A DNA stretch of 64,000 bases from Patescibacteria group bacterium (GCA_042570545.1 JBHPGJ010000002.1:31741-95740); one strand, 5' to 3'. Numbered from the stretch's first letter, positions 9,097 to 58,711 are shown. Made by a program: numbers and translations. The notes: generated by a model not told the origin, from the letters alone.

Positions 9097-9101
9097 CCAT
9101 T

Positions 9102-18900: not shown

Positions 18901-21900
18901 GCAGGTTGGTTTTGTCAGTACCCCGTATGGTCCGTCTGATGCCTGCAGCGGCGGCGGTCAAATATTAAATCCCAACAACAACAGCTGGTTCTGGGATGAT
19001 CTGGGTACACCAAACTTTACCGTTAATCCAACCGGTCCTGGCTTTGGTCTAAATCAGACAGTTGTCCAAGCCGTAAACGAAAATCTGGCAGTTGCTCCTG
19101 AACAATTATGTACCGAAGCAGCACGAATAGATCCACAACCGGCCCGGGACTGCTCTGATATTACCATTGATTATGCTCATTGTGTTGATAATCTTGATTG
19201 TCAGGACTATGACGGTATCCCGGCTACAATTGAATGTCCGGCAGCCACTTGTGATGATGTGACAAATCGCTGTAATCCGATCGTTTTTGGCCTGACGCCA
19301 AACAATGGTCCGTTAGGCACCTGGACAAGTGTCAATGGTTGCTATTTAGGCGGTTATCAATCTCCGACTTGCTTTAATCCCACCCAACCCGAACACGGCA
19401 ATCCCTGTAATTTTGATTCCCAATGCGGTATCGGCGGTGAGTGCCGCGGCAGCCGGGTAATATTCCATAATCAGGTTCCAGCCAAGTGGCCAGCGGTTTG
19501 CGGAGCGCCGGGTTCAACTTGGAGCGATACATCCATCATCGTGGAAGTACCGGACAAGGACACACCGCCTGGGGATGATGCTGTTACCGGACCGGTGGAA
19601 GTGTTTAGGTCCATCGATAATTTCTCAGCTATGTCGCCGGCTGACTTCACTGTCAATGCTAATCCGTTAGCGCCGGGCTTGTGCTGGGCGATACCAAATC
19701 AAGGACCAGAGCAAACGCTGGTGACTCTAATAGGGGATAATTTTGGCTTCCCCCGCGATATAGCCAACGACAAGGTCTACTTTTACAGCTCGACAGCTCC
19801 TGGCAATAGAGTTGAAGTAGCATCGTATATTGATTGGCAAAATCAGCAGATTCAAGTACGAGTACCAGCAGGTGCAGAAACTAATTTGGATATAGCTCAT
19901 ATCTGGTATCCCAATGAAGTAGCTGTCTTTAAGAGTTTATTACAGAGCAACCCGGTCAAGTTTGATGTTAATGCTAACGCTTGCGGGGCTACCTGTTCTA
20001 ATGACGCCGAGTGTGTAGCAGTCGGTCCAAATCTCGGCTGTGATGCTACCGGTTGTTGCGGTACGGCGCCTGATGTTGATTTTGTAAATACTTATCCGGG
20101 TATAAATGAAGTTAATGTTTGCCGTAATACATTAGTTACTGTTAGCTTTGATATGGCGATGATCCCCAGTACGTTAAATGCTAATAATATTACATTAGAG
20201 AATCTTACTGCTGGCGGCATTGTTTCACCCACCTCACTTAATCGCGGCAGTCAAGTTATTAAACTTTCCTATGGCTTATTGGATGCCGGCACCGATTACC
20301 GGATTACCGTTACAACCAATGTAGCTAACTCCCAAGGCGTGCATATGCTCAACAATAGGTCTTGGACATTCCAGACTAGGGCCCAAACACCACAAGAATC
20401 TGGTATTTGTAACATAGCGTTTGTAAATGTAACACCTGGTAATCATGATTATACCGCTTTGAATGAAAATATGACGTTCAATGCTCAGGCGCTTGATGCC
20501 ACCGGACAACCCATAATACCTATCCCCGGTGTCTTAGATTGGGCCTGGCTGTGGGAGAGCACTGATACTAATATTGTAAATCTGTTAGGACCCGTAGATA
20601 CTGACACAGTGAATACCGATGCCCTGGCTAATGGCTCGGTCCTGATCAGGGCTAACGCTAATGCCACCGTCGGCTGGGTAGGCACGGTAATCGGCCAGGC
20701 GACAGCTAATGTAAGATTCTGTGAAAATCCCTGGAGCTATACTGATGTACCAGGCTGTGCAATTGGGACGTGTAATGAGAATTATAATTTTACCACCGGT
20801 TATTGTCGTGGTAATGCCCCACCTTTACTGCCGGTACTGGATACCAGCATTCCCAATCGGGGCTGGTTGACGCAAAATGCCGTTCTAAGAAAACAATACT
20901 TGTTCAGGATCCCCAACACTGAGGACGGTATCGGCATACGAGTATTTGCAAATCCGGGACTGTTGTCAGTCCAAGAATGGTATAACCAAGAGGTGCCGAA
21001 TCCCGGAACGATCCAAGCCCTGACGGTAGATGGTTATGACGCAATTCGTGATGGTACCAGTGTCTATGTTGGGGCTACCAACTATACTGCTGCTACAGGG
21101 TTAAATGGTCGCATCTTCTTGTTTTCTTATAATAGCGACGCTGGTCCGGAAACGGTTAATATATTTAATCAATTGTTAGACTATATTAGTTTTAATACTA
21201 ACATTACAACCAGTACCTGTCTGGCCGTGCCAGCGGTACCGGACAAGGTATGTATTGCGCGAGATCTGAAACGGGTAAATGGAGTTAGGACAGTGGCTGG
21301 ACTACTGAATGGCTATCGAGCGGGTGGCCAAGGCGGCGGTGGTAGTAATCTGGTGAAAAATAAGGGTTTTGAAGTCGACGATAGTACCAATTATGATACA
21401 GCTGCCGGCTATGACAATGCCGTGGCAGGCGACGATCGGCCAAATGGCTGGTCAGAACCGCCGGCAACAGGTACACGAGATAGCGTGGTCAAAAGAGGTG
21501 GAGCCTTCTCAGTAAAAATCGAAACTAATGGCAATCAACGTTATGTTTATCAGGATATTCAGATTGAACAAGGTAAGAAATATATCGTCTCGGGCTGGAT
21601 CAGGACCGATCTGGAAATAGTTGGTGGCAGTAAAGCGGCCCTAACAACCGATTGTGTTGATGGCGGTCATAGTGTTAACAATGCCGGTTGTAACTTATAT
21701 CATCCCGCTGGCGTGGGCTTATCTGGTATAAGCGAATGGACTAGACAAAGTTTCATTGTTGAGGCTAATATGCCGACCAGTTCTCGACCCTACCTAAGAG
21801 TTAATTGCTATAACGGTCCCAATGCTGCCAGTACCGGTAAGATCTGGTGTGATGACATATCAGTTGTTGAAGGTACATCAATTTATCCTGATTTGGCTTC

Positions 21901-22276
21901 GGGCAGTTTTATCACCGGTATGACCACCAGTAGCTGGCCGACCTCTTGGCGCGGTAACTTCGCCAATCAACTGGGTTCCAATCAGTTGCCGGTTGATCCC
22001 TTGAATGTGTTTGATAATTGTCCGGTCGGATTTGATCAGACAGCTTGCTGGGATGATTCGATCAAACAATTTATATGCAATCAAGAAAGCCACATTTATG
22101 GTTATAAAACCGATCAAGGCTCCGACTATGACTTGTACGCCAATTTGGAATATGAAGGCTTGGGTGCCTGGACCAATTTTAATACGGCCACCGATATCTG
22201 TGCTGACGCTAGTGTCCAGACAGTTGCGCCAGGATCTCGCTGTGGCTGCTTTGACTATCGATTACAAAGTCCTTAA
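15974..22276 (+). CDS. Giant (2100 aa) Cys-rich extracellular protein with an N-terminal VirB2/TrbC-pilin-like two-helix membrane domain.
   Basis: N-terminus 'VINVIKWALGILALAAVAIMIYGGFLWITARGREEQIEKAKKVIIGALIGVVIVLLSWAIVLFV' has two hydrophobic helices separated by a basic loop. The remainder is Cys-, Gly-, Asp-, Asn- and Pro-rich with Ig-like stretches. The start uses an ATGA overlap with yqeY. Confidence 0.8.
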   Translation: MSKRRKSNKTNVLVIIAALTAAVSVGGFFSLVSVSAQTSFSIEDIGSSIGLGSADLKDVVINVIKWALGILALAAVAIMIYGGFLWITARGREEQIEKAKKVIIGALIGVVIVLLSWAIVLFVERFISGSTQTGGTVCTPGDQIPPIPATACFVCNATGTSWVPTGDPACIPGPSVFTLTDVETSNNGDATDVHLCSNANSIFNHRLNAQTILDADTLGDLGIYENPNTPGEIEVLGSFIPLTNSATWKHQLHCSNDRTQSCNNDADCGGAPNTCDKLFAANTDYEARFPQSIENFSGDFLQACSALPGCSFNNITNNFEFDFHVGVTTDIVEPTIVSADPMLPGNPGYPDRTISRYPIIDVSFNEPIDMTTVAALDVMGVARPIPANVKIEQWDNDPDAGGAYVVDVDPNIIQVQAKPQGFKLSLDGGHLLEPFTWYKIIVDNVEDLCGNSMVAQVDWNFQTTDAVPGVVGVYPPAGSSNVCPDTKIVVTFGTTMFNSDVTFQVTGGSVPIVITLPAASTMFPGPYTWTDGGGNTIRVVDPGPTADNNFRVYEVTPGVPLDINTTYDVAITTTLQIDVNGTTLSHNWQFATSTPELCACTPFVATVQPNQGPRGMCVSIVGECFDGTAAHPATVSNVEFDVDYGNPPPPAPWTSGEVTYNILLPDIIGTSIPLINTNDGNNPIFFNGDWPRARVTIAYADPAYGSHSSDPATNSFFVNSDNLADGPCLFSLNPGAGIAGTTVNAKGIRFGDPPPAQTTAEIHFEDGSGGANAGWLPGGWSQTDILTSVPGWAIDGDVFVRNDAGDSNKIYFDVIPPAPTSPMVLGHWPICASACLNAGMGADFNLNVEMDPTTIDGNTINVWKCTDGPTCNVFDPIPVAITVPSYVFNPIIPMNRAEWFGQNDFDPIEYYRVIMSNGILALSDGTPITNLNYDDPNNAINGLDSFSWIFQTGASACDIDTINTLPDAVTMTFANQQVGFVSTPYGPSDACSGGGQILNPNNNSWFWDDLGTPNFTVNPTGPGFGLNQTVVQAVNENLAVAPEQLCTEAARIDPQPARDCSDITIDYAHCVDNLDCQDYDGIPATIECPAATCDDVTNRCNPIVFGLTPNNGPLGTWTSVNGCYLGGYQSPTCFNPTQPEHGNPCNFDSQCGIGGECRGSRVIFHNQVPAKWPAVCGAPGSTWSDTSIIVEVPDKDTPPGDDAVTGPVEVFRSIDNFSAMSPADFTVNANPLAPGLCWAIPNQGPEQTLVTLIGDNFGFPRDIANDKVYFYSSTAPGNRVEVASYIDWQNQQIQVRVPAGAETNLDIAHIWYPNEVAVFKSLLQSNPVKFDVNANACGATCSNDAECVAVGPNLGCDATGCCGTAPDVDFVNTYPGINEVNVCRNTLVTVSFDMAMIPSTLNANNITLENLTAGGIVSPTSLNRGSQVIKLSYGLLDAGTDYRITVTTNVANSQGVHMLNNRSWTFQTRAQTPQESGICNIAFVNVTPGNHDYTALNENMTFNAQALDATGQPIIPIPGVLDWAWLWESTDTNIVNLLGPVDTDTVNTDALANGSVLIRANANATVGWVGTVIGQATANVRFCENPWSYTDVPGCAIGTCNENYNFTTGYCRGNAPPLLPVLDTSIPNRGWLTQNAVLRKQYLFRIPNTEDGIGIRVFANPGLLSVQEWYNQEVPNPGTIQALTVDGYDAIRDGTSVYVGATNYTAATGLNGRIFLFSYNSDAGPETVNIFNQLLDYISFNTNITTSTCLAVPAVPDKVCIARDLKRVNGVRTVAGLLNGYRAGGQGGGGSNLVKNKGFEVDDSTNYDTAAGYDNAVAGDDRPNGWSEPPATGTRDSVVKRGGAFSVKIETNGNQRYVYQDIQIEQGKKYIVSGWIRTDLEIVGGSKAALTTDCVDGGHSVNNAGCNLYHPAGVGLSGISEWTRQSFIVEANMPTSSRPYLRVNCYNGPNAASTGKIWCDDISVVEGTSIYPDLASGSFITGMTTSSWPTSWRGNFANQLGSNQLPVDPLNVFDNCPVGFDQTACWDDSIKQFICNQESHIYGYKTDQGSDYDLYANLEYEGLGAWTNFNTATDICADASVQTVAPGSRCGCFDYRLQSP

Positions 22277-39648: not shown

Positions 39649-41292
39649 ATGACACTAAAAAGTAGATTAAAATCAATTCTTGATAAGCGGTTGAAAGATG
39701 TTTATGGTGCCGAACAGGCTGAGCATCTGCCGCAGTACATCATTGAGCGTCCTCGTGAACTAAGATACGGCGAGTATTCGACTAATGTAGCCATGCAGCT
39801 AGCGCCGATTGTGAAAGAAGATCCAATGATAATTGCTCAGTCTCTTATTAACCAGACCAGATGGCCGGCAGCTGTTGGTAAGGTTTTGGTAGTGGCGCCG
39901 GGTTTCATAAACTTTTATTTAGGCGATGAGTGGCTCAGAAGACAGTTGCCGTCTATCGTTGAAACTAGATTTGGTCAGTCTGATATTGGTCGTAAGCGAA
40001 GAGTGTTAATTGAATTTATCTCAGCTAATCCGACTGGACCCCTGCATCTTGGTAATGGACGAGGAGCCTTCTTGGGTGACGTTTTAGCCAATGTCATGAG
40101 CTTGGCTTCATATAATGTAAAGAGAGAATATTATATAAATGATATTGGTAAGCAAGTACAAGTATTGGCCGAATCTGTCACGCGACGTTTTTTTCAGTCT
40201 CATGGAGTAGCAGTTCCTTATCCTGAGCACTGCTATCAGGGAGCATATATTTATGATCTAGCTAAACGTCTGGACAGCAGACTTAATAGTTATAAGCTTC
40301 AGGATATTCAAAAAGTGAGAGATAGAATAACCAGCCGGGTGCTTAAACTGATGTTAGATGATCTTAAGATATTTGTTGAAAAAGATTTACGAATTAAATT
40401 TGACCGCTGGTTTAGCGAATCCAGCCTGCATAAAAGCCCTACCGTCAAACGAATGCTTAATCATCTGCATAAACAGGATCTTCTTTATATTAAAGATGAT
40501 GCTTTATGGATGAAGACTTCTGGTTTTGGCGATGACAAAGACCGAGTTTTGGTTAAATCAGACGGCAATCAAACGTACTTTTTATCAGATATAGCTTATC
40601 ACTGGAATAAATTGGGTATGAGAAAATACGATATGGTCATTGATATACTTGGTGCTGATCATCATGGTTACATTGATCGCCTGCAAGCTGCGGTAGCAGC
40701 CATGGGCTATGCCGGGCAACTAGAAATAATTATTGTCCAATTAGTAAGATTGATTGAGAATAATAAAGAAATAAAGATGTCTAAGCGGGGCGGCACCTAT
40801 GTTACTCTGGAGGAGCTGATTGATCAGGTGGGCGTCGATGCCGTACGCTTTTTCTTTTTGATGCATAGCGCTGGCCGGCATATGGAATTTGACTTAAACT
40901 TAGCTAAAAAGAAATCAGATGAAAACCCGGTTTACTACGTACAGTATGCTCATGCTCGGATACGCAGTATAATAAAACAGGCCTCACCACTTTTAAAAGA
41001 CAAGAAAAAGCATAACAGTTCTAAGCTGACAGCCAAACAAAGTTTCCGCTTGATTAAAAAATTGCTCGAATATCCCGAGATTGTTGAAGAAGTTGCCCAA
41101 AATTACGAAACTCAACGTTTGCCTTTTTACGCCATTGATTTAGCTGAAAGCTTTCATGAATTTTACCAGAATGTCAGAGTAATAGATGGTGATGAATTAT
41201 TCATAAAAAGATTTGAACTTATTAAGGCCACTGGTAAAGTACTAAAAGACACTCTAAGTCTTATGGGCATCAGTGCACCAACTAAAATGTAA
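39649..41292 (+). CDS. argS: Arginyl-tRNA synthetase.
   Basis: 'SANPTGPLHLGNGRGA' (HIGH-like motif) and 'KMSKRGG' (KMSK); the length fits ArgRS. Confidence 0.9.
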   Translation: MTLKSRLKSILDKRLKDVYGAEQAEHLPQYIIERPRELRYGEYSTNVAMQLAPIVKEDPMIIAQSLINQTRWPAAVGKVLVVAPGFINFYLGDEWLRRQLPSIVETRFGQSDIGRKRRVLIEFISANPTGPLHLGNGRGAFLGDVLANVMSLASYNVKREYYINDIGKQVQVLAESVTRRFFQSHGVAVPYPEHCYQGAYIYDLAKRLDSRLNSYKLQDIQKVRDRITSRVLKLMLDDLKIFVEKDLRIKFDRWFSESSLHKSPTVKRMLNHLHKQDLLYIKDDALWMKTSGFGDDKDRVLVKSDGNQTYFLSDIAYHWNKLGMRKYDMVIDILGADHHGYIDRLQAAVAAMGYAGQLEIIIVQLVRLIENNKEIKMSKRGGTYVTLEELIDQVGVDAVRFFFLMHSAGRHMEFDLNLAKKKSDENPVYYVQYAHARIRSIIKQASPLLKDKKKHNSSKLTAKQSFRLIKKLLEYPEIVEEVAQNYETQRLPFYAIDLAESFHEFYQNVRVIDGDELFIKRFELIKATGKVLKDTLSLMGISAPTKM

Positions 41293-42445
41293 GAAAATGC
41301 GTATTGGTATAGATTGCCGCACAATATTAAATCCAGAACTTGGCGAAAAGGCCGGGGTAGGGCACTATACCTATTACTTGGTAAAAAATTTATTAAAAAT
41401 TGACCACCGCAATGAATATGTCTTGTTTTTTACTAGTCGCTTAAATCCCTTTAGCGAGTTTGAGCAGGCCAATGTGACGATGAAAGAATTTCCATTTGGT
41501 CGTTATAAAAAATTCTTACCTTTCAGCTATTCACATATGCTGATTGCCGCTTTAGTTAAACAGGCTAAACTTGATTTATTTCACTCGCCGGCAAATATAT
41601 TACCCCTGAGCTTGACCGGTAAGGCAGTAATTACCATTCATGATTTGGCGATTTATAAAAACCCTGATTGGTTTCCCAGTCAGGTTTTTTCTACCAAATT
41701 GCTGGTACCGCAATCAGTTAAGAAGGCTAAAAAAATAATAGCTGTTTCCCAAAGTACAGCTAATGATCTACGAGAGATTTTTAATGTACCAGCTAAAAAG
41801 ATCCATGTTATTCATGAGGGCGTGGCCATTGATTACCTAAAATTAAAAGATCGTCAGGTTGATATTAAAAAGAAGTTTAAATTACCCAAGCATTATTTAT
41901 TGTTTGTCGGCACTTTAGAACCCAGGAAAAATTTAATGATGTTAGTAAAAGTGTTTGCCGAAATACGTAAAGTGATTGATACAAAATTCAGCGATATCGA
42001 ATTAATATTGGCCGGTGCACCAGGCTTTCAAGCCGATGAATTATTCCGCCTGATTGAAGATTTGAAAATAAAAAAATATGTTCGCCATATAGGATATATA
42101 ACTCAAAATGAGAAATTCAAGTTAATGAAACAAGCCTGGGCCTTTGTCTTCCCGTCTTTGTATGAAGGTTTCGGCCTGCCCGTACTAGAGGCAATGAAGC
42201 TGGGTACGCCAGTATTGACCAGTCGGGCTTCCTCATTGCCAGAAGTAACCGGTACCAGCGCTCTAACGATAAATCCAAATGACGAACAAGCCATGTTCAA
42301 GGCGTTGGTAAAAATCATTCAGAATACTTCATTGAGATCCCGTTTGAAGATAACCGGCCGTCATCGTGCCGATCAATTTACTTGGGAAAAAACAGCTAAA
42401 AAAACTTTAAAGATATATAACACCGTTGTCGGTACTAACCGGTAG
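41273..42445 (+). CDS. Glycosyltransferase family 4 (group 1).
   Basis: 'EGFGLPVLEAMKLGTPVLTSRASSLPEV' is the GT4 E-x7-E region. Confidence 0.8.
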   Translation: MHQLKCKKMRIGIDCRTILNPELGEKAGVGHYTYYLVKNLLKIDHRNEYVLFFTSRLNPFSEFEQANVTMKEFPFGRYKKFLPFSYSHMLIAALVKQAKLDLFHSPANILPLSLTGKAVITIHDLAIYKNPDWFPSQVFSTKLLVPQSVKKAKKIIAVSQSTANDLREIFNVPAKKIHVIHEGVAIDYLKLKDRQVDIKKKFKLPKHYLLFVGTLEPRKNLMMLVKVFAEIRKVIDTKFSDIELILAGAPGFQADELFRLIEDLKIKKYVRHIGYITQNEKFKLMKQAWAFVFPSLYEGFGLPVLEAMKLGTPVLTSRASSLPEVTGTSALTINPNDEQAMFKALVKIIQNTSLRSRLKITGRHRADQFTWEKTAKKTLKIYNTVVGTNR

Positions 42446-46198: not shown

Positions 46199-48097
46199 AT
46201 GGCCAGAAAAATAAGTAAAAAAGTTAGAAAAGTCATCGTCACTCAAGATAAGTCAGATTCTATTGCCCCGCCGACTGATAAAGCTCAAGCTGAGCAATTT
46301 TATAGTCAACAAAAATCAAAAAATAAATCTCAATTTGAACGTGCTAAAAAAAGAAAATGGTCGGCCAAATGGATAATCATATCTATTGTGGCCTTAGTCT
46401 TTATAGTATCGCTGCTGGGATTTTTTGTCTTTCAATGGGGAGCCAATCAATTTACTGGTGATTTGGTTAATATCAGTTTTGAAGGCTCACAGAATGTTTC
46501 CTCTGGTGATACGGTTACCATAAAAATTAATTACCAAAACAACGAATCAGTACCCCTGGGTAACGCCAGCTTGGTGATGCAATTTCCCACTGGCTTTACC
46601 GTGCGTCAAACGTCAATGGAGCCAGTCAATCAGGCGGGTAATAGTTGGGATATTGGGAATTTGTCTAGCGGTAAGAGTGGCTCGCTTACCATCACTGGTC
46701 AATTGGTGGGCGAAATTGATTCAACCCACACCTTCAATGCCAAGCTTGTTTATAAACCGGCAAATTTTAATGCCACTTTTGAAACTGATGATGATTTTGT
46801 GGTTACTATTACTACTTCAATAATTAATTTGGAACTTGATGGTCCGACAAAAATTGCTCCCGATATTGAAGCTAAATATAAACTTACTTATATAAGCACC
46901 AGCGAAAGTGTGTTAGAAAATATTAGAATATCACCCCAGCTGCCGACAGCATTTGAATTAATATCTAGCAGTCCTGAGTTGAATGAAGAAAAAAGCTGGA
47001 CGGTGGAAAGATTAACAAAGAGCGAAAGCGGGTCTTTTGAAATCACTGGCAAGTTTACCGGTGATATTGGCGACACGGTAGAATTAGTTTTTGATGTAAG
47101 CATAATTGATGATGAGGGATTTGCTCAGAAACAATTGACATACACTCAGCTTATCTTGTTGGTTGGCGGTGACTTGTCATTGAGTTTTAAAGTCAATGAT
47201 TCGGATGTCAATAATGTAGTTGAGCACGGCGATGACCTGACCTATCAATTAATATATGCTAATAATACAGAATTCGTGTTAGAAAATGTTAGCTTTTCGG
47301 TTGAATTTGATGAGGCAATATTGGCTTGGGATGAGTTGATTGATTCAAACGGTGGTAATTTAGACGGTAAAAAAATAAATTGGAATAAGGACAACATATC
47401 GGCCTTAACCGATCTTAAACCGGGGGCCGAGGGGACGATAGAGTTTACTATACCCATAAGAACTAACCTAACTATTGATACCGAAAAAGACATAAACTTT
47501 TCTGTTGTCAGTATGGCCAGCGGCAATGTTGGTGGTGTTAAAGACGGAGCCGGTCTGACAATATCTGTGCCCACCAGTACAATTGAAAGTAAGATTGCTT
47601 CAAATTTTAATCTATCAGCTGAAGCAAGGTATTATACCGAGGAAAAAGAAAAATTGGGTGCTGGTCCAATACCACCACAAGCCGGTAAAAAAACAACTTA
47701 TCGCATAATATGGTTGATCAGCAATAATAGTAATGACGTCAGGGATGTATCGGTATCAGCCGAGCTGCCAAGTGATGTAAAATGGGCGGGCGAAAAGGAA
47801 CTAAGTGCCGGTAATCTAACTTATAATGAGTCAAAACGAACAGTTACTTGGACTATAAACGAAGCTCCAGCCGGTAGTGGTTATTACCTATCTTCTTTGT
47901 CAGCCAGCTTTGAAGTATCAATAACACCGACCACCAAAGATGTAGGCGACATAATGCTACTGACAGATGTAATAACTGCTGAGGGAACTGATGTCTATAC
48001 TCAAACGACCAGAAAATCGACCGTATCAAAATTAACAACAGAATTAACAACTGATACTTTTGGCCAGGGTAAAGGCGTAGTCGTTGATGGATCATAA
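46199..48097 (+). CDS. Membrane-anchored extracellular protein with repeated beta-rich (DUF11-like) modules; hypothetical.
   Basis: N-terminal basic region plus TM segment 'WIIISIVALVFIVSLLGFFVF'; several repeated ~100-aa Thr/Ser/Glu-rich segments. Confidence 0.55.
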   Translation: MARKISKKVRKVIVTQDKSDSIAPPTDKAQAEQFYSQQKSKNKSQFERAKKRKWSAKWIIISIVALVFIVSLLGFFVFQWGANQFTGDLVNISFEGSQNVSSGDTVTIKINYQNNESVPLGNASLVMQFPTGFTVRQTSMEPVNQAGNSWDIGNLSSGKSGSLTITGQLVGEIDSTHTFNAKLVYKPANFNATFETDDDFVVTITTSIINLELDGPTKIAPDIEAKYKLTYISTSESVLENIRISPQLPTAFELISSSPELNEEKSWTVERLTKSESGSFEITGKFTGDIGDTVELVFDVSIIDDEGFAQKQLTYTQLILLVGGDLSLSFKVNDSDVNNVVEHGDDLTYQLIYANNTEFVLENVSFSVEFDEAILAWDELIDSNGGNLDGKKINWNKDNISALTDLKPGAEGTIEFTIPIRTNLTIDTEKDINFSVVSMASGNVGGVKDGAGLTISVPTSTIESKIASNFNLSAEARYYTEEKEKLGAGPIPPQAGKKTTYRIIWLISNNSNDVRDVSVSAELPSDVKWAGEKELSAGNLTYNESKRTVTWTINEAPAGSGYYLSSLSASFEVSITPTTKDVGDIMLLTDVITAEGTDVYTQTTRKSTVSKLTTELTTDTFGQGKGVVVDGS

Positions 48098-50826: not shown

Positions 50827-50944
50827 CCCAAATAATCTGATATATCACGACCGGCTATTGATAAAATGGCGGCTTTGTGGTGGTAAGGTTTCAACTATTA
50901 ATAATTCATTTTGACCGGTATTAATGGTATAATGTTAAAAACTA

Positions 50945-51340
50945 TTGACTATTATGAGCCAAAATATATTTGTCAAATCTTCAACTTTTATCTTCCGTGA
51001 ATTAATTTTTGATGTGGTCCGTTTTCCCTGGTGGTGGTATACCCGCGGTACTATGAACGCTGCTTTTTTTATAAGTCGGGAAATGTCTGATTGGGCCAAT
51101 CGGTTGAGTTTACGTATCTTACTGCGCAATATGTTTAAGCCCATGTATGGTGATTATACCCGCAGTGGCCGGGCCATCAGCTTTTTTATCAGGGTGATAA
51201 TGTTTTTCGTAAAATCAATTGTCTTTGTACTCTGGTCAGTTTTATTGATCGCCCTATTATTGTTATGGCTACTTGTACCGCTGGCGATTATTTATATGAT
51301 TTATTTGAACATTACCGGTGATAAAATAATCGGAACCTAA
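50945..51340 (+). CDS. Hypothetical membrane protein, overlapping and probably co-transcribed with the downstream Clp-like ATPase.
   Basis: C-terminal hydrophobic helices 'IVFVLWSVLLIALLLLWLLVPLAIIYMIYL'; its stop overlaps the start of the next ORF. Confidence 0.5.
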   Translation: MTIMSQNIFVKSSTFIFRELIFDVVRFPWWWYTRGTMNAAFFISREMSDWANRLSLRILLRNMFKPMYGDYTRSGRAISFFIRVIMFFVKSIVFVLWSVLLIALLLLWLLVPLAIIYMIYLNITGDKIIGT

Positions 51341-51341
51341 A

Positions 51342-54110
51342 ATGGCAGAAGAAGAAATACTACCAGATCTGTTACTACTTGAATGCAATACCTGCAAAGG
51401 TCGGGGCCGCTTAGCCGAGGACAAACAGACAAAAGCGTGTCCCAGTTGTCATGGTCTTGGATTAGCCGCCTGGCTTGATGGACAGTTCTGGCACTGGGGT
51501 AAAACATTTTCCATCCTGCGCATATTAAGCGACCGGGCCGAGCAGCTGGGCCGGGCGGTTATAAATGGCATCTTAATGGCCTTGGCACTGGTCGGGTTTG
51601 CCAGCGGGGTCTGGCAATTTTATCAGCGCTGGCAGGTTGATACTGACGTAGTCGGCTGGCTAAACACTCGCAATACCGGCATGATATTATTTTGGATCGG
51701 TTTGCTTATCGGTTTATATATTTTCTTTCGTTTAGAGCGTGAGCGGTCATCACACCCGGTTATAAAACGCAAAAGTATTGGTAATTTATTAATCCCGCCA
51801 CCGGCTGGATTGACTTATGATGATTACCAAAAAAATAAATTACAGTCACTTGAAATATCTCAGTATCTTGACTGGCAGGCCAAACAATCAGTTGAGAAGG
51901 CCTGGCTACTGGCTCATCGTCTTGATCACCCACAGGTAGAACCAATTCATTTATTGGCCTCACTTTATGATGCTCCGCGGGTTAAAGTTATCATGGCCCG
52001 CTTAGGTGTTGATTCGAGCAAGTTAGTACAAAAAATAAAAAGACGTTTTAGTGAACTGCCAAAAATAAAGGGTGGCGAACCCATTGTGTCCGCTAATGTG
52101 CTGGAGCTTTATTATCAGGCTTTTGCTTTTGCTTATAAAGAAAGGAATCCAGTGATTGATGCTCCAGATCTTTTTCTAGCTGTCACTAAGGTAGAGGCTG
52201 TGGCCAAAGAGATCTTATATGATATGGAGGTTGATGAAAATAAACTGACAAATGTCGTCAAGTGGGTAGATTTGCAGCAGCGTGTAAGCAAACAGTGGCA
52301 ACGTTTTCGGTCCCGAGCGGCTCGCAAACCCAAAGGTGCCATGGATCGGGCCATGCTAGCCCAGGCCACTCCCGTACTTGATCATTATAGTCGCGATTTG
52401 ACCCAGTTGGCCAGGATTGGCGGTTTACCCCTGACCATTGGTCGTGATGATGAAGTGGAAGAGATATTTAGAGTATTAGAGAGTGGCCGCGGTAATGCCT
52501 TAATCGTCGGTGCCGCTGGAGTCGGCAAGGATATGTTGCTTAACGCCATTGCCGACCGGATGGCTTCGGAAGAAGTTCCCGAGAGCCTACAAGATAAAAG
52601 GTTTGTATCACTTAATATTTCTTCACTAGTAGCCGGCGCTGGTGCAGTCGGGGAGCTGGAAGAAAGACTGCATGAACTGCTGGATGAGGTGGTGAGATCG
52701 GGCAATATAATAATAGCAATAGAGAATCTCCACACCATGGTCGGTGTTTCTTCAGCTGGTGGACAAAGCATGGACTTGTCCGAGGTCCTGGCCCAGGCTA
52801 TTGCTACCAATAAGATAATTGTTGTCGGTACATCGACACCAAATGAATTTCGAAAGTATATCGAACCGCGTGGCAGTCTGATGACGCACTTTCAACCGAT
52901 AAGGATCAATGAGGTCGATGAAAATACTTCCATTCTGATATGTGAAACTAAAGTCGGCCCGATAGAATATCATCACCGAGTATTTTTTGCTTATGAAGCG
53001 ATAGAAAGATCGGTCAAATTAGCTAAACGTTATTTGACCGAATTAATGCTGCCAACTTCAGCCATCAATTTAATGGAGGAAGTAGCGGTAATGGTGAAAA
53101 AGACGAAAGGGGTCAATAGCTTTGTAACCGGTGAAGATGTGGCTCAGTTGGTATCACAGCGGGCAAATGTATCCGTCACAAAAATAACTGAGGACGAGAC
53201 GGAAAAACTGCTTAATCTAGAAAATATAATTCACCAGCGTTTAATCGACCAGAATGAGGCTGTCAATGCTGTTGCCTCGGCGCTACGCCGGGCCCGAGCC
53301 GAGCTAAGAGATACCAAAAGGCCAATAGCTAATTTACTGTTCTTAGGTCCAACCGGAGTGGGTAAGACCCAACTGGCTAAAACAGTCGCTGACGTATATT
53401 TTGGTTCCGAAGAAAACATGATCCGTCTGGACATGTCGGAATATCAAGACCAATATTCTATCTACCGGTTGATCGGCACTCCCGAAGGAGCCGGTGGCGG
53501 TTACCTGACCGAAGCCGTCAGACGTAATCCATTTTCACTGGTGCTGCTGGATGAAATTGAAAAAGCCCACCCCGATGTTTTAAACGTATTTTTACAAGTT
53601 ATGGACGATGGTCGTTTGACTGATTCATCAGGACGGACAATAGATTTTACCAACGTTATATTGGTTGCTACCTCAAATGCAGCTACACCAATTATTCAAG
53701 CCCGAGTTAGTGAGGGTGTTGATGTTCAGCATATTAAAGATGAAATGATGACTGGCGGTCTGGCCAAATATTTCCGGCCAGAATTTCTTAACCGTTTTGA
53801 TAACATAGTTGTCTTCAAACCACTCAGCCTAAGCGATATATTTGCAATTGCCAAATTGCTGCTTAAGGACGTAGAGAAACGACTGCAGAAAAAGGGCATT
53901 ATACTTGAGGCGACCGATGGGGCAATAGCTGAGCTGGCCAAAGCCGGTTATGACCCCATTTATGGTGCTCGACCATTACGGCGGGTGATCCAAGAGAGGG
54001 TTGATGATGCGTTAGCTAAACATTTACTTCAGGGCAAGATCGGTCGACGCGATATTGCTGTATTAGAAACCGGTGGTCGGATTACGGTCAAACAAGCCAA
54101 GGAATTATAA
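51342..54110 (+). CDS. Membrane-anchored ClpC/ClpB-like AAA+ protein with an N-terminal CxxC zinc ribbon, two TM helices, Clp_N repeats, a degenerate D1 and a canonical D2.
   Basis: N-terminus 'CNTCKGRGR...CPSCHG'; TM helices around residues 75-125. D1 Walker A reads 'GAAGVGKD' and Walker B 'IIIAIENLHT', both non-canonical. D2 reads 'GPTGVGKT', 'LVLLDEIEKAHPDV' and 'RPEFLNRFD'. Confidence 0.8.
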   Translation: MAEEEILPDLLLLECNTCKGRGRLAEDKQTKACPSCHGLGLAAWLDGQFWHWGKTFSILRILSDRAEQLGRAVINGILMALALVGFASGVWQFYQRWQVDTDVVGWLNTRNTGMILFWIGLLIGLYIFFRLERERSSHPVIKRKSIGNLLIPPPAGLTYDDYQKNKLQSLEISQYLDWQAKQSVEKAWLLAHRLDHPQVEPIHLLASLYDAPRVKVIMARLGVDSSKLVQKIKRRFSELPKIKGGEPIVSANVLELYYQAFAFAYKERNPVIDAPDLFLAVTKVEAVAKEILYDMEVDENKLTNVVKWVDLQQRVSKQWQRFRSRAARKPKGAMDRAMLAQATPVLDHYSRDLTQLARIGGLPLTIGRDDEVEEIFRVLESGRGNALIVGAAGVGKDMLLNAIADRMASEEVPESLQDKRFVSLNISSLVAGAGAVGELEERLHELLDEVVRSGNIIIAIENLHTMVGVSSAGGQSMDLSEVLAQAIATNKIIVVGTSTPNEFRKYIEPRGSLMTHFQPIRINEVDENTSILICETKVGPIEYHHRVFFAYEAIERSVKLAKRYLTELMLPTSAINLMEEVAVMVKKTKGVNSFVTGEDVAQLVSQRANVSVTKITEDETEKLLNLENIIHQRLIDQNEAVNAVASALRRARAELRDTKRPIANLLFLGPTGVGKTQLAKTVADVYFGSEENMIRLDMSEYQDQYSIYRLIGTPEGAGGGYLTEAVRRNPFSLVLLDEIEKAHPDVLNVFLQVMDDGRLTDSSGRTIDFTNVILVATSNAATPIIQARVSEGVDVQHIKDEMMTGGLAKYFRPEFLNRFDNIVVFKPLSLSDIFAIAKLLLKDVEKRLQKKGIILEATDGAIAELAKAGYDPIYGARPLRRVIQERVDDALAKHLLQGKIGRRDIAVLETGGRITVKQAKEL

Positions 54111-54136
54111 AAGAGCAGACCGATCTGATCTGCTCA
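54105..54136 (-). terminator. Hairpin terminator between the convergent Clp-like and Gam-like genes; the T-tract is on the minus-strand side.
   Basis: GAGCAGA (54114-54120) ... TCTGCTC (54130-54136); the minus-strand reading gives the stem followed by TTTTATAA. Confidence 0.5.
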
Positions 54137-54162
54137 GTAAGAAACTATTAGCGGACCTTGGC

Positions 54163-54708
54163 TCAGGTCAGCTTTTTCAGCTTGTCTACGCCGGCGGCGA
54201 TCTCAGCGTCGGTTTTGTCTGGCTTGACGAAGAATTCTTCGTGCTGACCAATCTTAACACCTTTGACTTGGCCAGCCGCCCCCGGCTCCTTGAGCATGGC
54301 CTCCTTATCGACCGTTTTCTTGACTCGGATGAAGCGGGTAAGACGTTTTTCCCGGAGCTGTTTCAGGACAGCGTCAACATTGCGGAGGGTTACCGCCGGA
54401 GGTGTTAAACGCCAGCCGAAAGTGCCAACCGGCAGATCAACCGATTTCTTCTTATCGCTATCGGTAAGCTCAGTACGGTTGGCTTGAGCAAAAGCAAACA
54501 AACCAGTCACCAGATCGTCGATCCGCCTTTGCCGCACTTGCACTTTTTCGGCCGCCTCTTCTTTCAACCGGTCCAGTCTGGAGTTGAGTCGGGTGTTGAC
54601 CGCATCAATAGCACGTTGTTCGACGGCAATGTCGGCGATAAATTTGGCGGCGGCGGCTAGATCCTGCGGTACAGCAACTACTGATCTTTTCAGCGTTTTC
54701 TTAGTCAT
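54163..54708 (-). CDS. Bacteriophage Mu Gam-like DNA-end-binding / host-nuclease inhibitor protein.
   Basis: 'AQANRTELTDSDKKKSVDLPVGTFGWRLTPPAVTLRNVDAVLKQLREKRLTRFIRVKKTVDKEAMLKEP' closely parallels the Mu Gam core '...ANRDELT...SWRVRPPSVSIRGMDAVMETLERLGLQRFIRTKQEINKEAILLEP', which is recalled from memory. RBS AAGGGGG is present. Local GC is about 55%. Confidence 0.75.
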   Translation of the reverse strand: MTKKTLKRSVVAVPQDLAAAAKFIADIAVEQRAIDAVNTRLNSRLDRLKEEAAEKVQVRQRRIDDLVTGLFAFAQANRTELTDSDKKKSVDLPVGTFGWRLTPPAVTLRNVDAVLKQLREKRLTRFIRVKKTVDKEAMLKEPGAAGQVKGVKIGQHEEFFVKPDKTDAEIAAGVDKLKKLT

Positions 54709-55220: not shown

Positions 55221-56024
55221 GTGGCTCAGGAGTATAAAAATAATAATTTGAAAATTGTAATACTAACTTCATACAAACACATATATGCTGATATAGTAAT
55301 TAGGAAATTGTTTTCAGCGCTTCCTGATCATCAGTATCTAATTATTTATCAGAAAGCTTTAGTAGCCGGTAAATCTAAGATAAGTGGGCTGCAATATTAT
55401 TGGCGAAAGAGTGGTGCCAGATATGTGATGGCTCAAGTAATTAAGCAATTAATTATTTTATTATTCTATCGATTTTTAAAGCCTGATAAAAACATTCAGA
55501 CAGAAATTTGGGAAAACCATAAACTGGATGATATTGAAAAAATAATTAGTGATTATCAGCCCGATGTAATCTTATCAATTTATTCAAAGTATAAATTATC
55601 TGACAACATTCTGTCAGCGGCCAGCAAGTACTCAATAAATATTCATCCGTCGCTATTGCCGGCTTATAAAGGCGTCAGTCCCACGTTTTGGGTTCTGGCA
55701 AACGACGAAAAAGAGACCGGAGTATCTATCCATAAATTAACCAAATCTTTTGATGAAGGAAGTATAGTTGCTCAGAAGAATATTTACATAGATAAAAATG
55801 ATAGCGAGCATAGTTTATACCTAAAATGTTCTATGCTGGGATCTGGTTTGGTGATCGATACATTAAATATTATAAATACCAACCAGCCGCTTACTAAACT
55901 GTCAGAAAATAAATCGTCATCATACTTTTCTCTACCTGATCGATCAGCAGTTCGGAAGTTTAAAAATAATGGGCGGTCGTTTTTTAAATTATCAGAGTTG
56001 TCAAAAAAACCTGTACTTAACTAA
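55221..56024 (+). CDS. Formyltransferase (Fmt / ArnA N-terminal-domain-like).
   Basis: 'INIHPSLLPAYKGVSPTFWVLANDEKETGVSIHKLTKSFDEGSIV' is the formyl-transferase active-site region. Confidence 0.8.
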   Translation: MAQEYKNNNLKIVILTSYKHIYADIVIRKLFSALPDHQYLIIYQKALVAGKSKISGLQYYWRKSGARYVMAQVIKQLIILLFYRFLKPDKNIQTEIWENHKLDDIEKIISDYQPDVILSIYSKYKLSDNILSAASKYSINIHPSLLPAYKGVSPTFWVLANDEKETGVSIHKLTKSFDEGSIVAQKNIYIDKNDSEHSLYLKCSMLGSGLVIDTLNIINTNQPLTKLSENKSSSYFSLPDRSAVRKFKNNGRSFFKLSELSKKPVLN

Positions 56025-56045
56025 TATTATGTATATAATATAACC

Positions 56046-56798
56046 ATGTCAGCTGAATACGAAAAAGATTTCAGCCTAATATTGCCTATATATAATGAGG
56101 GCATAAAATTATCAAAAAACTTAGATAATATATCGCGTACTCTTGGTATTGCTGGTATTAATTATGAAATAATACTAATTGACGATGCCAGTCAGGACGA
56201 TAGTGCTCAGCGGGCAAAGAATTTTGCTCAGTCTAATGATAGGGTGGTTTTTTATCAGCATGAAAAAAATATGGGTCGCGGTCGGACGGTCATGGATGGT
56301 TTTTCTAAAGCCAAGGGACAAATAATAAGTTTTATTGATGTCGATTGTGAGGTGTCGCCAATATATTTGTTAGAATTTGTGAATGATATGCTTAATAATA
56401 ATAAAGTTGATGTAATAACCGGCCGCCGGATTTATACATTCTCAATAAGTAAAATGCTCCGACCGTTATTTAGCATGATTTATCGAGTGTTGATACGGGT
56501 GATGCTGGGAGTAAAACTGCTAGATACGGAAACGGGTTATAAATTATTTCGTAATTCTTCCTATCAAAGTATAGCTTCATTTTTAAAAAATAACGACTGG
56601 TTCTGGGATACTGAGGTGATGACAGTCTCGGCATTAGCTGGTCTTAAGATACAAGAGAGAAATGTATTATTTGTCAGAGATCATGACAAAAAATCATCAG
56701 TTCGTCTGATCCCGGATATTATAAAGTACTTAAAAGCCATGATGAAATTTCGACGTACTATTCCGCAATTAAAGAGGGATCTGAAAAATAATGGATAA
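56046..56798 (+). CDS. GT2 polyprenyl-phosphate sugar transferase (ArnC/DPM1-like).
   Basis: 'LSLILPIYNEGIKL...EIILIDDASQDDS' is a GT2 signature. Confidence 0.8.
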   Translation: MSAEYEKDFSLILPIYNEGIKLSKNLDNISRTLGIAGINYEIILIDDASQDDSAQRAKNFAQSNDRVVFYQHEKNMGRGRTVMDGFSKAKGQIISFIDVDCEVSPIYLLEFVNDMLNNNKVDVITGRRIYTFSISKMLRPLFSMIYRVLIRVMLGVKLLDTETGYKLFRNSSYQSIASFLKNNDWFWDTEVMTVSALAGLKIQERNVLFVRDHDKKSSVRLIPDIIKYLKAMMKFRRTIPQLKRDLKNNG

Positions 56799-57966
56799 AC
56801 TGAAAAATTTTATACCCTTTGGCGCTCCCAAATTTGACAAGCATACCGAACAGGAGGTCATAAAAACTTTACGCAGTGGCTGGATCGGTACCGGACCGCA
56901 AACAGAAAAGTTTGAAAAGAAAATTGCCGAGTATCTGGGTGTAGAAAACGCAGTGGCCGTATCATCATGTACGGCTGGTCTGCATTTGAGTTTATTGGTT
57001 TCGGGGATCAAGCAGGGTGATGAAGTAATAACCAGTCCTATGACCTATATTGCCACCGCCAGCGCCATTATGCAGGCTGGTGCCAAAGTAAAATTTGCGG
57101 ATATTGATTTAGCCACTTATAATATTAAATCTGATGAAATCGGAAAAAATATAAGCAAAAAGACAAAAATAATCCTGCCGGTTCATTTTGGCGGCTTACC
57201 GGCTGATCTAGCAGCAATCAAAAAGATTATCGGACGAAAGAAAATAAAAATCATTGAAGACGCAGCTCATGCTATTGGTGCCCGGTATGATGGTAAAAAA
57301 ATCGGTAAAAGTGATAATTTAGTCTGTTTTAGTTTCTACCCAAATAAAAATATCACCAGTTGCGAAGGGGGAATAATAGCAGTACCTGATAAGAAGTTGG
57401 CTGATAAAATACGCGTACTAAGCACGCACGGATTAGACGCCGATGCCTGGAAACGATATCATCGCCGTTCTTTGCGGGTTAGCCTGGCGGTAATGCCTGG
57501 ATATAAATATAATCTGACCGATTTAAATTCCACCATTGGCTTGCAACAGCTAAAAAAAGTCGAGAAATGGCAGCGGCTGAGAGAAAATTATGCAAAGATT
57601 TATGATAAATTTTTTAGTGATATTCCCGGCGTTTATATACAGAAAAGACCCAAGAATATCAGACGCAATCGGCACTCATTGCACCTGTACAGTTTAAGGT
57701 TGGATGAAGAAGTATTTAAACATGGTACCAGGGATAGGGTAGTCAAAAAATTATTAGCTAAAAATATTGGTGCCAGCGTTCATTACTATGCCATACATCT
57801 ACATCCGTTATTTCGCAAATTAGGTTATAAAAAAGGAGATTTTCCAATCGCTGAAAAAGTAAGCCAAGAGATTTTTTCCCTGCCGTTGACCCCCCATCTG
57901 ACTACTAATGTTATCAGAACCATTGCCGGCATTACTAAAGAAACGATAAAGAATAACCTTTCATAA
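56791..57966 (+). CDS. DegT/DnrJ/EryC1/StrS-family PLP-dependent sugar aminotransferase (ArnB-like).
   Basis: 'FGAPKFDKHTEQEVIKTLRSGWIGTGPQTEKFEKKIAEYLGVENAVAVSSCTAGLHL' is the family N-terminus; an active-site Lys region is present. Confidence 0.85.
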   Translation: MDKLKNFIPFGAPKFDKHTEQEVIKTLRSGWIGTGPQTEKFEKKIAEYLGVENAVAVSSCTAGLHLSLLVSGIKQGDEVITSPMTYIATASAIMQAGAKVKFADIDLATYNIKSDEIGKNISKKTKIILPVHFGGLPADLAAIKKIIGRKKIKIIEDAAHAIGARYDGKKIGKSDNLVCFSFYPNKNITSCEGGIIAVPDKKLADKIRVLSTHGLDADAWKRYHRRSLRVSLAVMPGYKYNLTDLNSTIGLQQLKKVEKWQRLRENYAKIYDKFFSDIPGVYIQKRPKNIRRNRHSLHLYSLRLDEEVFKHGTRDRVVKKLLAKNIGASVHYYAIHLHPLFRKLGYKKGDFPIAEKVSQEIFSLPLTPHLTTNVIRTIAGITKETIKNNLS

Positions 57967-57970
57967 TTTA

Positions 57971-58711
57971 GTGGATCAATCTACACATAATACAGTTAGA
58001 CGTGAGGGTACCAAACACTGGTGGTTTGTCGGACGTAAACAAATTTTTGCCAAATTATTAAAAAATTATCTTCCCAAATCGAATCTTAATATACTTGATC
58101 TCGGCTGCGGATCGGGCAATATGTATTCGGTATTAAGTAAATATGGAAAACTGACAGGGGTCGATAATAGCGGGGAAGTGCTGGCCTACGCCCAAAAAAT
58201 TGGTTACGAAAAAATTGTCAAAGCCAACGCCCTTGATCTTCCGTTAAATAATAATGAATATGATTTGGTAGTCGCTGTTGATCTGATTGAACATATCGAC
58301 GATGAAAATAAATTTATAAATGAGATATTTCGGGTGATGAAACCCGGTGGCTACTTATTTATTACCACCGCTGCCTTTGATTCTCTGTGGAGCCGATTAG
58401 ATGAGCTGTCTCATCATAAGCGTCGCTATACCAAGGTCTCGTTAATGAAAAGTTTAAGCCGGCCGGGCTGGCAATTGGAAAAAATAAGATATTATAATGT
58501 ATTTCTTTTTTGGCCCATAGTGATAAAACGCATGATTGATAAGATGTTATCAAACAAATCAAATGACGCCAGTGATTTGTATGATCTAAGAACACCGCCG
58601 GCCATAATTAATAATCTTTTGGAAAATATTTTAATCAGCGAAAAGTATTTTATCGGTATCCCGTTCCCAGCCGGTGTATCGTTAATGGCAATAGTTAAAA
58701 AAAATGGATAA
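57971..58711 (+). CDS. Class I SAM-dependent methyltransferase.
   Basis: 'ILDLGCGSGNM' motif I; 'VVAVDLIEH' motif II. Confidence 0.7.
   Translation: MDQSTHNTVRREGTKHWWFVGRKQIFAKLLKNYLPKSNLNILDLGCGSGNMYSVLSKYGKLTGVDNSGEVLAYAQKIGYEKIVKANALDLPLNNNEYDLVVAVDLIEHIDDENKFINEIFRVMKPGGYLFITTAAFDSLWSRLDELSHHKRRYTKVSLMKSLSRPGWQLEKIRYYNVFLFWPIVIKRMIDKMLSNKSNDASDLYDLRTPPAIINNLLENILISEKYFIGIPFPAGVSLMAIVKKNG

Follow-up and report, generated by a model that had tools for sequence, protein, structure and literature searches.

To our knowledge, the characterised bacterial members of the Hsp100/Clp superfamily are all soluble and carry tyrosine pore loops, and most have two active rings; they work with either ClpP or DnaK. 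The function of ClpB/Hsp104 requires both rings and both pore-loop tyrosines, and ClpE and ClpX carry an N-terminal Cys4 zinc module in front of the Clp ATPase. Among other AAA+ machines, Pex1/Pex6 (with Pex15) combines an inactive D1 with an active D2 and is recruited by a membrane protein, NSF likewise has a scaffold ring in its D2, and Torsin, a Clp-D2-like ATPase without a pore-loop aromatic residue, depends on its membrane partner LAP1 or LULL1. Here we describe a pair of genes in a 64,000-nucleotide (nt) stretch of DNA from a Patescibacteria group bacterium (GCA_042570545.1, JBHPGJ010000002.1:31741-95740; hereafter the window, in which all coordinates are counted and in which the pair lies on the plus strand). 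The first gene encodes a small, predicted membrane protein (the partner) and the second a 922-amino-acid (aa) Hsp100/Clp-type ATPase (the window ATPase), which is an undescribed membrane version of this well-studied machine. Its family departs from the pattern above in several respects at once: it combines a predicted membrane anchor and a conserved partner with a scaffold-only D1 and a dispensable D2 pore-loop tyrosine, and it has neither a ClpP loop nor a middle (M) domain. A literature search (including PMC6744442) turned up no account of either a membrane-anchored Hsp100 or this Candidate Phyla Radiation (CPR) family.

The 922-aa open reading frame (ORF) had been called in an earlier annotation made from the DNA alone (the sequence-only reading). 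We confirmed this ORF, and its product is 100% identical to the NCBI protein 'AAA family ATPase [Patescibacteria group bacterium]' (P0001). Pfam identified Clp_N (residues 190-234), AAA_lid_9 (529-593; E=3.6e-10), AAA_2 (660-822; E=3.8e-53) and ClpB_D2-small (828-901; E=1.6e-22). The best sequence match in the PDB, found with phmmer, was ClpC (3j3t; E=7.7e-148), and ClpB and ClpA were also matched; the E-values for ClpC and AAA_2 place the homology far past chance. An AlphaFold2 (AF2) model (mean predicted local distance difference test score (pLDDT) 83.6; predicted template modelling score (pTM) 0.71) begins with a beta module of five strands (residues 11-51), which is followed in order by helices 58-99 and 112-136, by a tether with little order, by an N domain made of helices (178-298), by one long helix (299-328) and by two AAA+ modules. 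When this model was searched with Foldseek, the top matches were ClpC and ClpB, with a target-normalised TM-score of at most 0.86 over the two AAA+ modules. With its tandem AAA+ modules, Clp-type D2 (AAA_2), D2-small, AAA_lid_9 and Clp_N domains, the protein has the features by which class I is recognised, and on these sequence features we assign it to the Hsp100/Clp class I superfamily.

Within that superfamily, scores against the curated NCBIfam models fell below the cut-offs for ClpB (TIGR03346; 627.1 bits, cut-off 1232.1, still the highest NCBIfam score), ClpA (TIGR02639; 516.5 bits, cut-off 993), ClpV (484, cut-off 885), ClpK (498, cut-off 1900) and ClpG (484, cut-off 1900). The scores for ClpB, ClpA and ClpV are all about half of their respective cut-offs. 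The ClpA model covers residues 179-900 in one continuous match, and the match to TIGR03346 splits into two. Pfam found no M41 peptidase domain, the domain expected of an FtsH-type membrane protease. A database search recovered about 40 full-length relatives (840-1072 aa, 41-78% identity), all named ones from Patescibacteria; below these, scores fall steeply to ordinary ClpB proteins that cover only about 35% of the query. For family statistics we aligned 100 distinct orthologues, comprising full-length database relatives and orthologues recovered from GTDB genomes, and counts out of 100 refer to this set; a smaller alignment of 41 sequences was also the input for the AF2 model. State changes were counted on a quick neighbour-joining (NJ) tree and are approximate, and individual residues were compared with those of B. 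subtilis ClpC, E. coli ClpB and E. coli ClpA. A reading of the ATPase as part of a defence system was dropped, as PADLOC gave only generic AAA matches (PDC-M37B, 9.1e-32 over D2; DolB).

The predicted anchor is a hairpin of two transmembrane (TM) helices near the N terminus. In a Kyte-Doolittle (KD) scan for hydrophobic segments, TM1 and TM2 each reached a maximum of 2.07, and the sole further segment past the cut-off, residues 822-841 inside D2, was marginal (1.67). AF2 modelled the two corresponding helices with a pLDDT of 81-91. TM1 is strongly hydrophobic in every orthologue (mean KD 2.04); the mean for TM2 is 1.29, and an Asp lies inside TM2 in 75 of the 100 members, where the window protein has Gly. 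Averaged over the family, the 20-residue flanks hold 4.45 (N-terminal side) and 4.6 (C-terminal side) Lys plus Arg, and the intervening loop, some 21 residues long, holds 1.8, a pattern which, by the positive-inside rule, predicts a hairpin with the zinc ribbon (see below) and the ATPase both in the cytoplasm. The two TM helices proposed in the sequence-only reading are thus borne out, and membrane tethering is supported by hydrophobicity, by the distribution of positive charges, by the AF2 hairpin and by the family-wide conservation of the module.

In front of the hairpin lies a putative zinc ribbon. Two CxxC pairs had been noticed near the N terminus, and we found that both are exact CxxCxGxG motifs (C15-C18, CNTCKGRG; C33-C36, CPSCHGLG). 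Over residues 12-48, the Pfam models DnaJ_CXXCXGXG (17.9 bits, cut-off 32.7) and Anti-TRAP (18.3 bits) gave sub-threshold matches; the DnaJ_CXXCXGXG score is low because that model expects four repeats and only two are present here. The AF2 model places strands at residues 11-14, 23-26, 29-32, 41-45 and 48-51. The two repeats, about 14 residues apart, resemble those of the DnaJ cysteine-rich domain and Anti-TRAP and would suffice for a single zinc centre, compared with two in DnaJ; here they stand in one protein with a membrane hairpin and a Clp ATPase. The module also differs from the zinc module of ClpE in being of the DnaJ CxxCxGxG type, in being separated from the ATPase by the hairpin and in being dispensable in 23% of the family. 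Thus, the ribbon reported in the sequence-only reading is present in the window protein and in 77 of the 100 orthologues, but it is an optional element: it has been lost in the other 23, among them P0003-P0005, which are 71-74% identical to the window ATPase, and we counted at least about 8 changes on the NJ tree.

The Clp_N domain that had been placed after the TM helices is indeed there, at 28.9 bits against a Pfam cut-off of 20.7, and residues 181-300 align to the N domains of ClpA and ClpB. The long helix that follows contains a family-specific tryptophan, W308, which is invariant in all 100 orthologues. When residues 1-345 served as the phmmer query against 1.84 billion cluster representatives, 351 matched at E<=1e-3, and 175 did so at E<=1e-10. 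All full-length matches but one, a 1231-aa protein (P0260), are 850-960 aa long, and from these lengths the N-terminal module occurs only in proteins built in this way. A look-up of clusters for the taxonomy of distant representatives added one name, Kerfeldbacteria. P0260 carries a C-terminal MraY/WecA-type Glycos_transf_4 domain (residues 968-1124), either through genuine fusion or through read-through in gene calling. Should the fusion be genuine, it may, together with glycosylation genes near some loci, hint at a link to lipid carriers or envelope glycans.

The first AAA+ module, D1, is by sequence a non-catalytic ring that lacks the Walker B Glu, the arginine fingers and the pore-loop Tyr. 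Alignment to ClpC, ClpB and ClpA confirmed the atypical Walker A (GAAGVGKD) and Walker B (IIIAIEN) motifs from which the sequence-only reading had concluded that D1 is probably ATPase-dead. The module proved to be more degenerate than that reading stated: the pore loop (AGAGAVGELE) has A435 at the position of ClpB Y251 (AGAKYRGEFE), and both arginine fingers are gone, with T515 and H516 (SLMTHFQ) at the positions of ClpB R331 and R332 (ALERRFQ). We found that the Walker B Glu is missing from every one of the 100 orthologues (DN in 43, EN in 18, ED in 11, NN in 8, DD in 6, and others), which supports a dead D1 as a family trait. The arginine pair is RR in 5, which form a single subclade with DD or ED at Walker B, and the fingers are missing in the remaining 95; an aromatic pore-loop residue occurs in 1 and is missing in 99. 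Walker A retains the canonical GxxxxGK[ST] form in 48 of the 100, and its Lys is kept in 88.

We also considered whether these odd motifs could be sequencing or assembly errors or the marks of a decaying pseudogene, and the N-terminal extension the product of a mis-called start. The sequence-only reading had named canonical D1 motifs in relatives as the observation that would point to error. The family comparison did not bear this out: GVGKD or GVGKE and IEN recur in independently assembled relatives with 71-78% identity to the window ATPase (P0002-P0005, which make up its clade), so that GVGKD is not a sequencing error, and the absence of the Walker B Glu throughout the orthologues argues against both error and pseudogene. 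An intact reading frame and a strongly constrained D2 likewise argue against a pseudogene, and the retention of the N-terminal module in at least 175 cluster representatives argues against a mis-called start. Because the deviations are common to relatives, we regard an artefact as refuted and its remaining probability as negligible.

In contrast to D1, D2 was shown by alignment to retain every residue required for ATP hydrolysis. In addition to its Walker motifs (the extended Walker B reads LLDEIEKAHPD), it carries sensor 1 (TSN), an arginine finger (R818 in RPEFLNRFD) and sensor 2 (GARPLRR). The Walker A sequence GPTGVGKT is found in 99 of the 100 orthologues and the Walker B DE in all of them, and N817, R818, the sensor 1 TSN and the sensor 2 GAR-P are invariant in the 41-sequence alignment. 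An RRD at residues 902-904, inside an 8-residue insertion relative to ClpB, is also invariant and is specific to the family. Mean pairwise identity is lowest toward the N terminus (0.25-0.32), higher in D1 (0.48) and highest in D2 (0.63), as expected of a working D2 motor under purifying selection. D2 had been described in the sequence-only reading as fully canonical, and this holds for all of its catalytic motifs, the arginine finger included. It is inaccurate for the pore loop, because D2 of the window ATPase lacks the substrate-gripping tyrosine: its loop, GTPEGAG----GGYLTE, aligns with ClpB GAPPGYVGYEEGGYLTE in such a way that A717 stands at ClpB Y653 and GYVG is gone. An aromatic residue is kept at this position in 38-39 of the 100 orthologues, and about 60%, including the window protein, are without one; we counted at least about 11 state changes on the NJ tree.

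The M domain and the ClpP-binding loop (IGF/LGF) had been singled out as informative for placing the protein among ClpC, ClpB and ClpE. We found neither. The ClpB coiled-coil M domain (about 120 residues, ~405-524) and the shorter M domain of ClpC (about 60 residues, ~412-465, a coiled coil that binds MecA and other adaptors) have no counterpart on alignment, and residues 588 and 589 join D1 to D2. The ClpP-docking tripeptide [ILVM]G[FL] is found in the D2 region of 0 of the 100 orthologues; the position of the ClpA IGL is EGV in the window ATPase and is polar and variable across the family, and ClpC KYVGFNVQ aligns with SEGVDVQ. These results bear on the possibility that the ATPase is a membrane-bound activator of ClpP of the ClpC/ClpA/ClpE type, and hence part of a membrane-associated Clp protease. 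Such a protein would account for the best sequence and structure matches, which include ClpC, ClpA and ClpE, for the lack of an M domain, as in ClpA, and for the name 'ATP-dependent Clp protease ATP-binding subunit' that relatives bear in public databases. However, in addition to the missing tripeptide and the altered IGL site, no clpP gene was present in any inspected neighbourhood, and the NCBIfam scores are all far under their cut-offs. ClpC gives the best PDB sequence and fold match and shares the Clp_N domain, but the window ATPase differs from ClpC and ClpE in having no M domain, no VGF/LGF loop and a dead D1. It shares with ClpA the order N domain, D1, D2; ClpA, however, is cytosolic, with two catalytic rings that have tyrosine pore loops, and carries the IGL loop. 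We therefore consider a role in activating ClpP to be extremely unlikely, and the database name is probably wrong for this family.

A different possibility is that the ATPase is this lineage's substitute for ClpB, a general disaggregase attached to the membrane by chance. ClpB gave the top NCBIfam score (627 bits), its D2 is about 50% identical to that of the window ATPase, and neither protein has the ClpP loop. The likeness to ClpB/Hsp104 extends to the two AAA+ modules with Clp_N and to the same Walker A and B, sensors 1 and 2 and arginine finger in D2. However, the window ATPase lacks the M domain that couples ClpB to DnaK, the catalytic residues of D1 and the GYVG of D2, so that D1 is dead and both tyrosines are missing, and it has a membrane anchor, a zinc ribbon and a membrane partner. 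The score, moreover, is about half of the cut-off of 1232, and the possession of a membrane partner of its own points to a specialised role. A ClpB substitute thus seems very unlikely.

The partner is encoded immediately upstream of the ATPase. Its likely start is the ATG at 50954, giving 128 aa, rather than the TTG at 50945; its TAA stop (51338-51340) is followed by a 1-nt spacer and then by the ATPase ATG at 51342. The protein has the motifs FPxWWYxxG, FxPMYGDY and GRxISFxxR, ten invariant residues (P25, W27, W28, G32, P63, M64, G72, I75, S76 and R80) and a hydrophobic C-terminal 50 residues. The hydrophobic stretch 72-122 (KD maximum 3.04) has room for one or two membrane spans, and AF2 modelled helices 5-50, 53-58 and 70-121 with a pLDDT of 93.4. 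Searches against Pfam, NCBIfam and PADLOC gave no match, not even with the whole set of 55 aligned members and a limit of E<=1, and Foldseek against the PDB returned nothing below E=2, that is, no solved structure alike. A profile search found 1587 homologues, of which the named ones are all of Patescibacteria type (Kerfeld-, Falkow- and Nomurabacteria, Parcubacteria group). Given the rest of this distribution, a few records titled 'Gammaproteobacteria', 'Planctomycetota' or 'Acutalibacteraceae' are regarded as mislabelled or mis-binned.

In a survey of one genome per GTDB species, the partner gene was present in 297 species genomes. All nine loci inspected by hand have it directly upstream of the ATPase gene. 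Among 80 loci with at least 600 nt of downstream sequence (72 from the GTDB scan and 8 inspected by hand), a Clp-like gene follows next on the same strand in 77, mostly within about 30 nt. The upstream gene had been described in the sequence-only reading as encoding a small membrane protein and as co-transcribed and overlapping with the ATPase gene; the genes are indeed tightly coupled, but there is no overlap, a single nucleotide lying between them. From their arrangement across genomes, we conclude that the pair is a conserved two-gene unit specific to Patescibacteria, with the second gene apparently translationally coupled to the first. In one locus (L031, 4433-7121), the Clp-like gene seems to be split by a frameshift (two tblastn segments in different frames), possibly a pseudogene or an assembly error.

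Together, these data suggest that the pair encodes a ClpP-independent remodeller that is driven by D2 alone and acts at the membrane with the partner, a picture that we hold with slightly better than even confidence as a whole; its architecture is near-certain, and its mechanism is much less so. By homology with ClpB, ClpC and ClpA, the ATPase would form a hexamer, anchored to the cytoplasmic face of the membrane through the N-terminal hairpin. D1 would serve as an assembly scaffold, either purely structural or, given that 88% of the family retain the Walker A Lys, perhaps still able to bind nucleotide, and D2 would be the sole motor. The tether at the N terminus would turn the entry face, formed by the N domain and D1, toward the membrane, so that the clients would be membrane-embedded or membrane-proximal. 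The ATPase probably acts together with or through the partner, which could be an adaptor, an anchor or the client itself, and the optional zinc ribbon may be an accessory element that binds client or partner. The machine would work alone, neither as a component of a ClpP protease nor as a DnaK-coupled disaggregase of the ClpB type.

How such a machine would act on its clients depends on the D2 loop. About 40% of the family keep a GAPPGY.G loop, so that pulling or threading driven by D2 was likely ancestral. The aromatic residue has nevertheless been lost repeatedly while the catalytic residues remained invariant, which suggests that a strong grip on polypeptides is not essential to the conserved function, and in the window clade, where the loop consists only of Gly and Ala (GAGG), processive unfolding is doubtful. 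The window protein is thus more likely, in our view, to pull to a limited extent or to act conformationally on a partner or client dedicated to it. One tentative form of this idea, drawn by analogy, is that the protein is an Hsp100 that no longer threads: a membrane-embedded, D2-driven hexamer that might use ATP hydrolysis to power a conformational cycle in or on its membrane partner, much as in Torsin-LAP1 or a mechanotransmission device.

The sequence-only reading had instead called the protein a ClpC/ClpB-like unfoldase and suggested that it perhaps services large surface proteins. In the strong form of this model, it would be a processive, membrane-tethered unfoldase or extractase, like Msp1 or the FtsH ATPase, that threads membrane or surface substrates through D2. 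This fits with the intact and highly conserved D2 catalytic site, with the ClpB-like GAPPGY.G loop in about 38-39% of orthologues and with a tether that brings the entry face near membrane proteins; a conserved Tyr right after the shortened loop (GGYLTE) might also partly replace the lost one. On the other hand, the window protein has Ala at the equivalents of both ClpB Y251 and Y653, the D1 aromatic is missing almost throughout the family, the D2 aromatic has changed state about 11 times, and gene content gives no tie to the large surface proteins. With neither ring of the window protein carrying the pore-loop tyrosine of canonical Hsp100 threading, the label of ClpC/ClpB-like unfoldase is weakened; the M domain that defines ClpB and ClpC is also absent. 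We consider a processive extractase possible but doubtful.

Several points also weigh against the D2-only remodeller that we prefer. Membrane insertion and topology are predictions from hydrophobicity, charge pattern and an AF2 monomer model. The topology may be single-span, with the zinc ribbon outside the cell, because TM2 is only moderately hydrophobic and usually contains Asp. A physical interaction between partner and ATPase is suggested by gene adjacency. Three genomes (L061, L063 and L066) carry the partner without an adjoining ATPase gene; by eye, the next gene has a Sua5/YrdC-like motif in L061 and L063 and a RuvA-like N terminus in L066, so that the partner can exist apart from an adjoining ATPase, or the ATPase is elsewhere in these genomes. 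The approximately 11 changes of the D2 aromatic fit poorly with any model in which gripping of polypeptide is essential, and the neighbourhoods yield no consistent clue to clients.

The remodeller that we propose shares with FtsH, Msp1/ATAD1, Pex1/Pex6 and Torsin-LAP1/LULL1 a ring held at the membrane, a split into scaffold and motor rings or a dedicated small membrane partner. These likenesses are analogies and not tests of homology. They draw on general knowledge and on the literature on membrane-tethered and half-inactive AAA+ machines (e.g. PMC5762779, PMC5425593, PMC7018516). The window ATPase differs from FtsH in having no peptidase domain, from Msp1 and Pex1/Pex6 in belonging to the Hsp100 clade and not to the classical AAA clade, and from Torsin in that its family keeps its own arginine finger (the invariant R818). 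The module is widespread in Patescibacteria, with the partner in at least 297 species genomes, and as the tiny genomes of these bacteria keep little that is dispensable, it is probably important for the membrane or envelope. In addition, the family amounts to a natural experiment on the abilities of an Hsp100 ring that lacks pore-loop aromatics. If the non-threading reading is true, the pair would be a CPR-specific machine for building or maintaining an unusual cell envelope or an interface with host cells.

Table 1. Positions of the gene pair, its domains and motifs, and candidate signals flanking it in the window (residue numbers are those of the ATPase).
Feature	Coordinates	Strand	Basis and remarks
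Extended -10-like promoter element TGgTATAAT, candidate	50925..50933	+	Read from sequence, ~20 nt upstream of the partner ATG
Partner gene, 128-aa small membrane protein (predicted)	50954..51340	+	ORF, homologues, AF2, KD scan
ATPase gene, membrane-anchored (predicted) Hsp100/Clp-type double-ring AAA+, 922 aa	51342..54110	+	ORF, Pfam, PDB, AF2, Foldseek
N-terminal beta-rich zinc ribbon (putative), residues 11-51	51372..51494	+	C15, C18, C33, C36; sequence, sub-threshold Pfam, AF2 strands
Predicted membrane hairpin: TM1 (residues 69-91), ~20-residue loop, TM2 (residues 111-132)	51546..51737	+	KD scan, AF2 helices, charge pattern
Clp_N-type N domain (residues ~178-298) and family-specific long helix (299-328)	51873..52325	+	Pfam, alignment, AF2
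D1 AAA+ module, residues ~341-590, non-catalytic (by sequence)	52362..53111	+	Alignments to ClpC, ClpB and ClpA; family statistics
D1 Walker A GAAGVGKD	52509-52532	+	K396, D397 = ClpB K212, T213 (GEPGVGKT)
D1 Walker B IIIAIEN	52707-52727	+	AIENLH E461, N462 = ClpB FIDELH D278, E279
D2 AAA+ module and D2-small, residues ~591-922, catalytic site intact (by sequence)	53112..54107	+	Pfam, invariant columns, alignment
D2 Walker A GPTGVGKT	53346-53369	+	Alignment
D2 pore loop, 4-aa deletion, no Tyr	53472-53510	+	Alignment
D2 Walker B LLDEIEK	53538-53564	+	Alignment
Terminator-like hairpins, candidates	54113..54169		Minus-strand 54135-54113 + T run; plus-strand 54154-54169 + T run

The candidate promoter element lies in the 127-nt gap after a NUDIX gene that ends at 50826; a simple -35/-10 scan did not list it. 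The candidate hairpins are placed between the ATPase stop codon and a convergent Gam-like gene. As consensus matches, these elements are suggestive of a bicistronic unit. Upstream in the window, the same strand carries genes for arginyl-tRNA synthetase (ArgRS), a family 4 glycosyltransferase (GT4), isoleucyl-tRNA synthetase (IleRS), RecO, a DUF11 protein, a PHP-like protein, tgt and a NUDIX hydrolase. Downstream, the convergent Mu Gam-like gene is followed by formyltransferase, family 2 glycosyltransferase (GT2), DegT aminotransferase and methyltransferase genes.

When we clustered the neighbouring ORFs of 89 loci, only the partner and the ATPase were universally co-located. Upstream, a DUF11/CLIPPER protein recurs in 31 loci, tgt in 25 and RecO in 19, which looks like inherited gene order, with no functional partner emerging. 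Some loci share downstream genes for a protein of about 400 aa without a Pfam match, a class II aminoacyl-tRNA synthetase (aaRS; tRNA-synt_2b + HGTP_anticodon), an M16 peptidase and an AI-2E transporter; these are absent from the window and are not universal. No type VI secretion system (T6SS) genes were found near the inspected loci. The suggested link to large surface proteins is thus unsupported: beyond the pair itself, neighbours are either housekeeping genes (tgt, RecO, aminoacyl-tRNA synthetases) or variable. The window does contain two very large ORFs (71-4828, 1585 aa; 15974-22276, 2100 aa) and a 632-aa DUF11/CLIPPER protein gene (46199-48097), all on the plus strand and probably encoding surface proteins.

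Membrane-related genes adjoin the pair at three other loci, and none is conserved across the family. YidD and YidC lie directly upstream of the pair in L008 (3315-4892). In L007, a VirD4/TrwB-like coupling ATPase is encoded upstream (3110-5530) and a GtrA-like protein 2 nt downstream (8525-8962). Three PMT_2 glycosyltransferases are encoded upstream in L003 (278-5470), where a type IV secretion system (T4SS)-pilin-like gene lies downstream (8824-9204). At a further locus (L002, 3172-4563, in the genome of P0007), tgt and the partner gene flank a bAvd gene and a reverse-transcriptase gene (RVT_1), which is the signature of a diversity-generating retroelement.

The phage Mu Gam-like gene convergent to the ATPase (54163-54708, minus strand; Phage_Mu_Gam, 1.8e-33) adjoins non-coding DNA that reaches to about 55220. 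The gene has a GC content of about 0.51-0.53, compared with 0.29-0.45 in the flanks, and related genomes hold the hypothetical protein of about 400 aa and the class II aaRS at this place. A tRNA scan near the gene found none. The gene looks like an isolated foreign insertion. Beyond it, formyltransferase, GT2, DegT/ArnB-type aminotransferase and methyltransferase genes follow one another (55221-58711, plus strand); together with the GT4 gene at 41273-42445, they resemble an Arn-like pathway that modifies a lipid-linked aminosugar.

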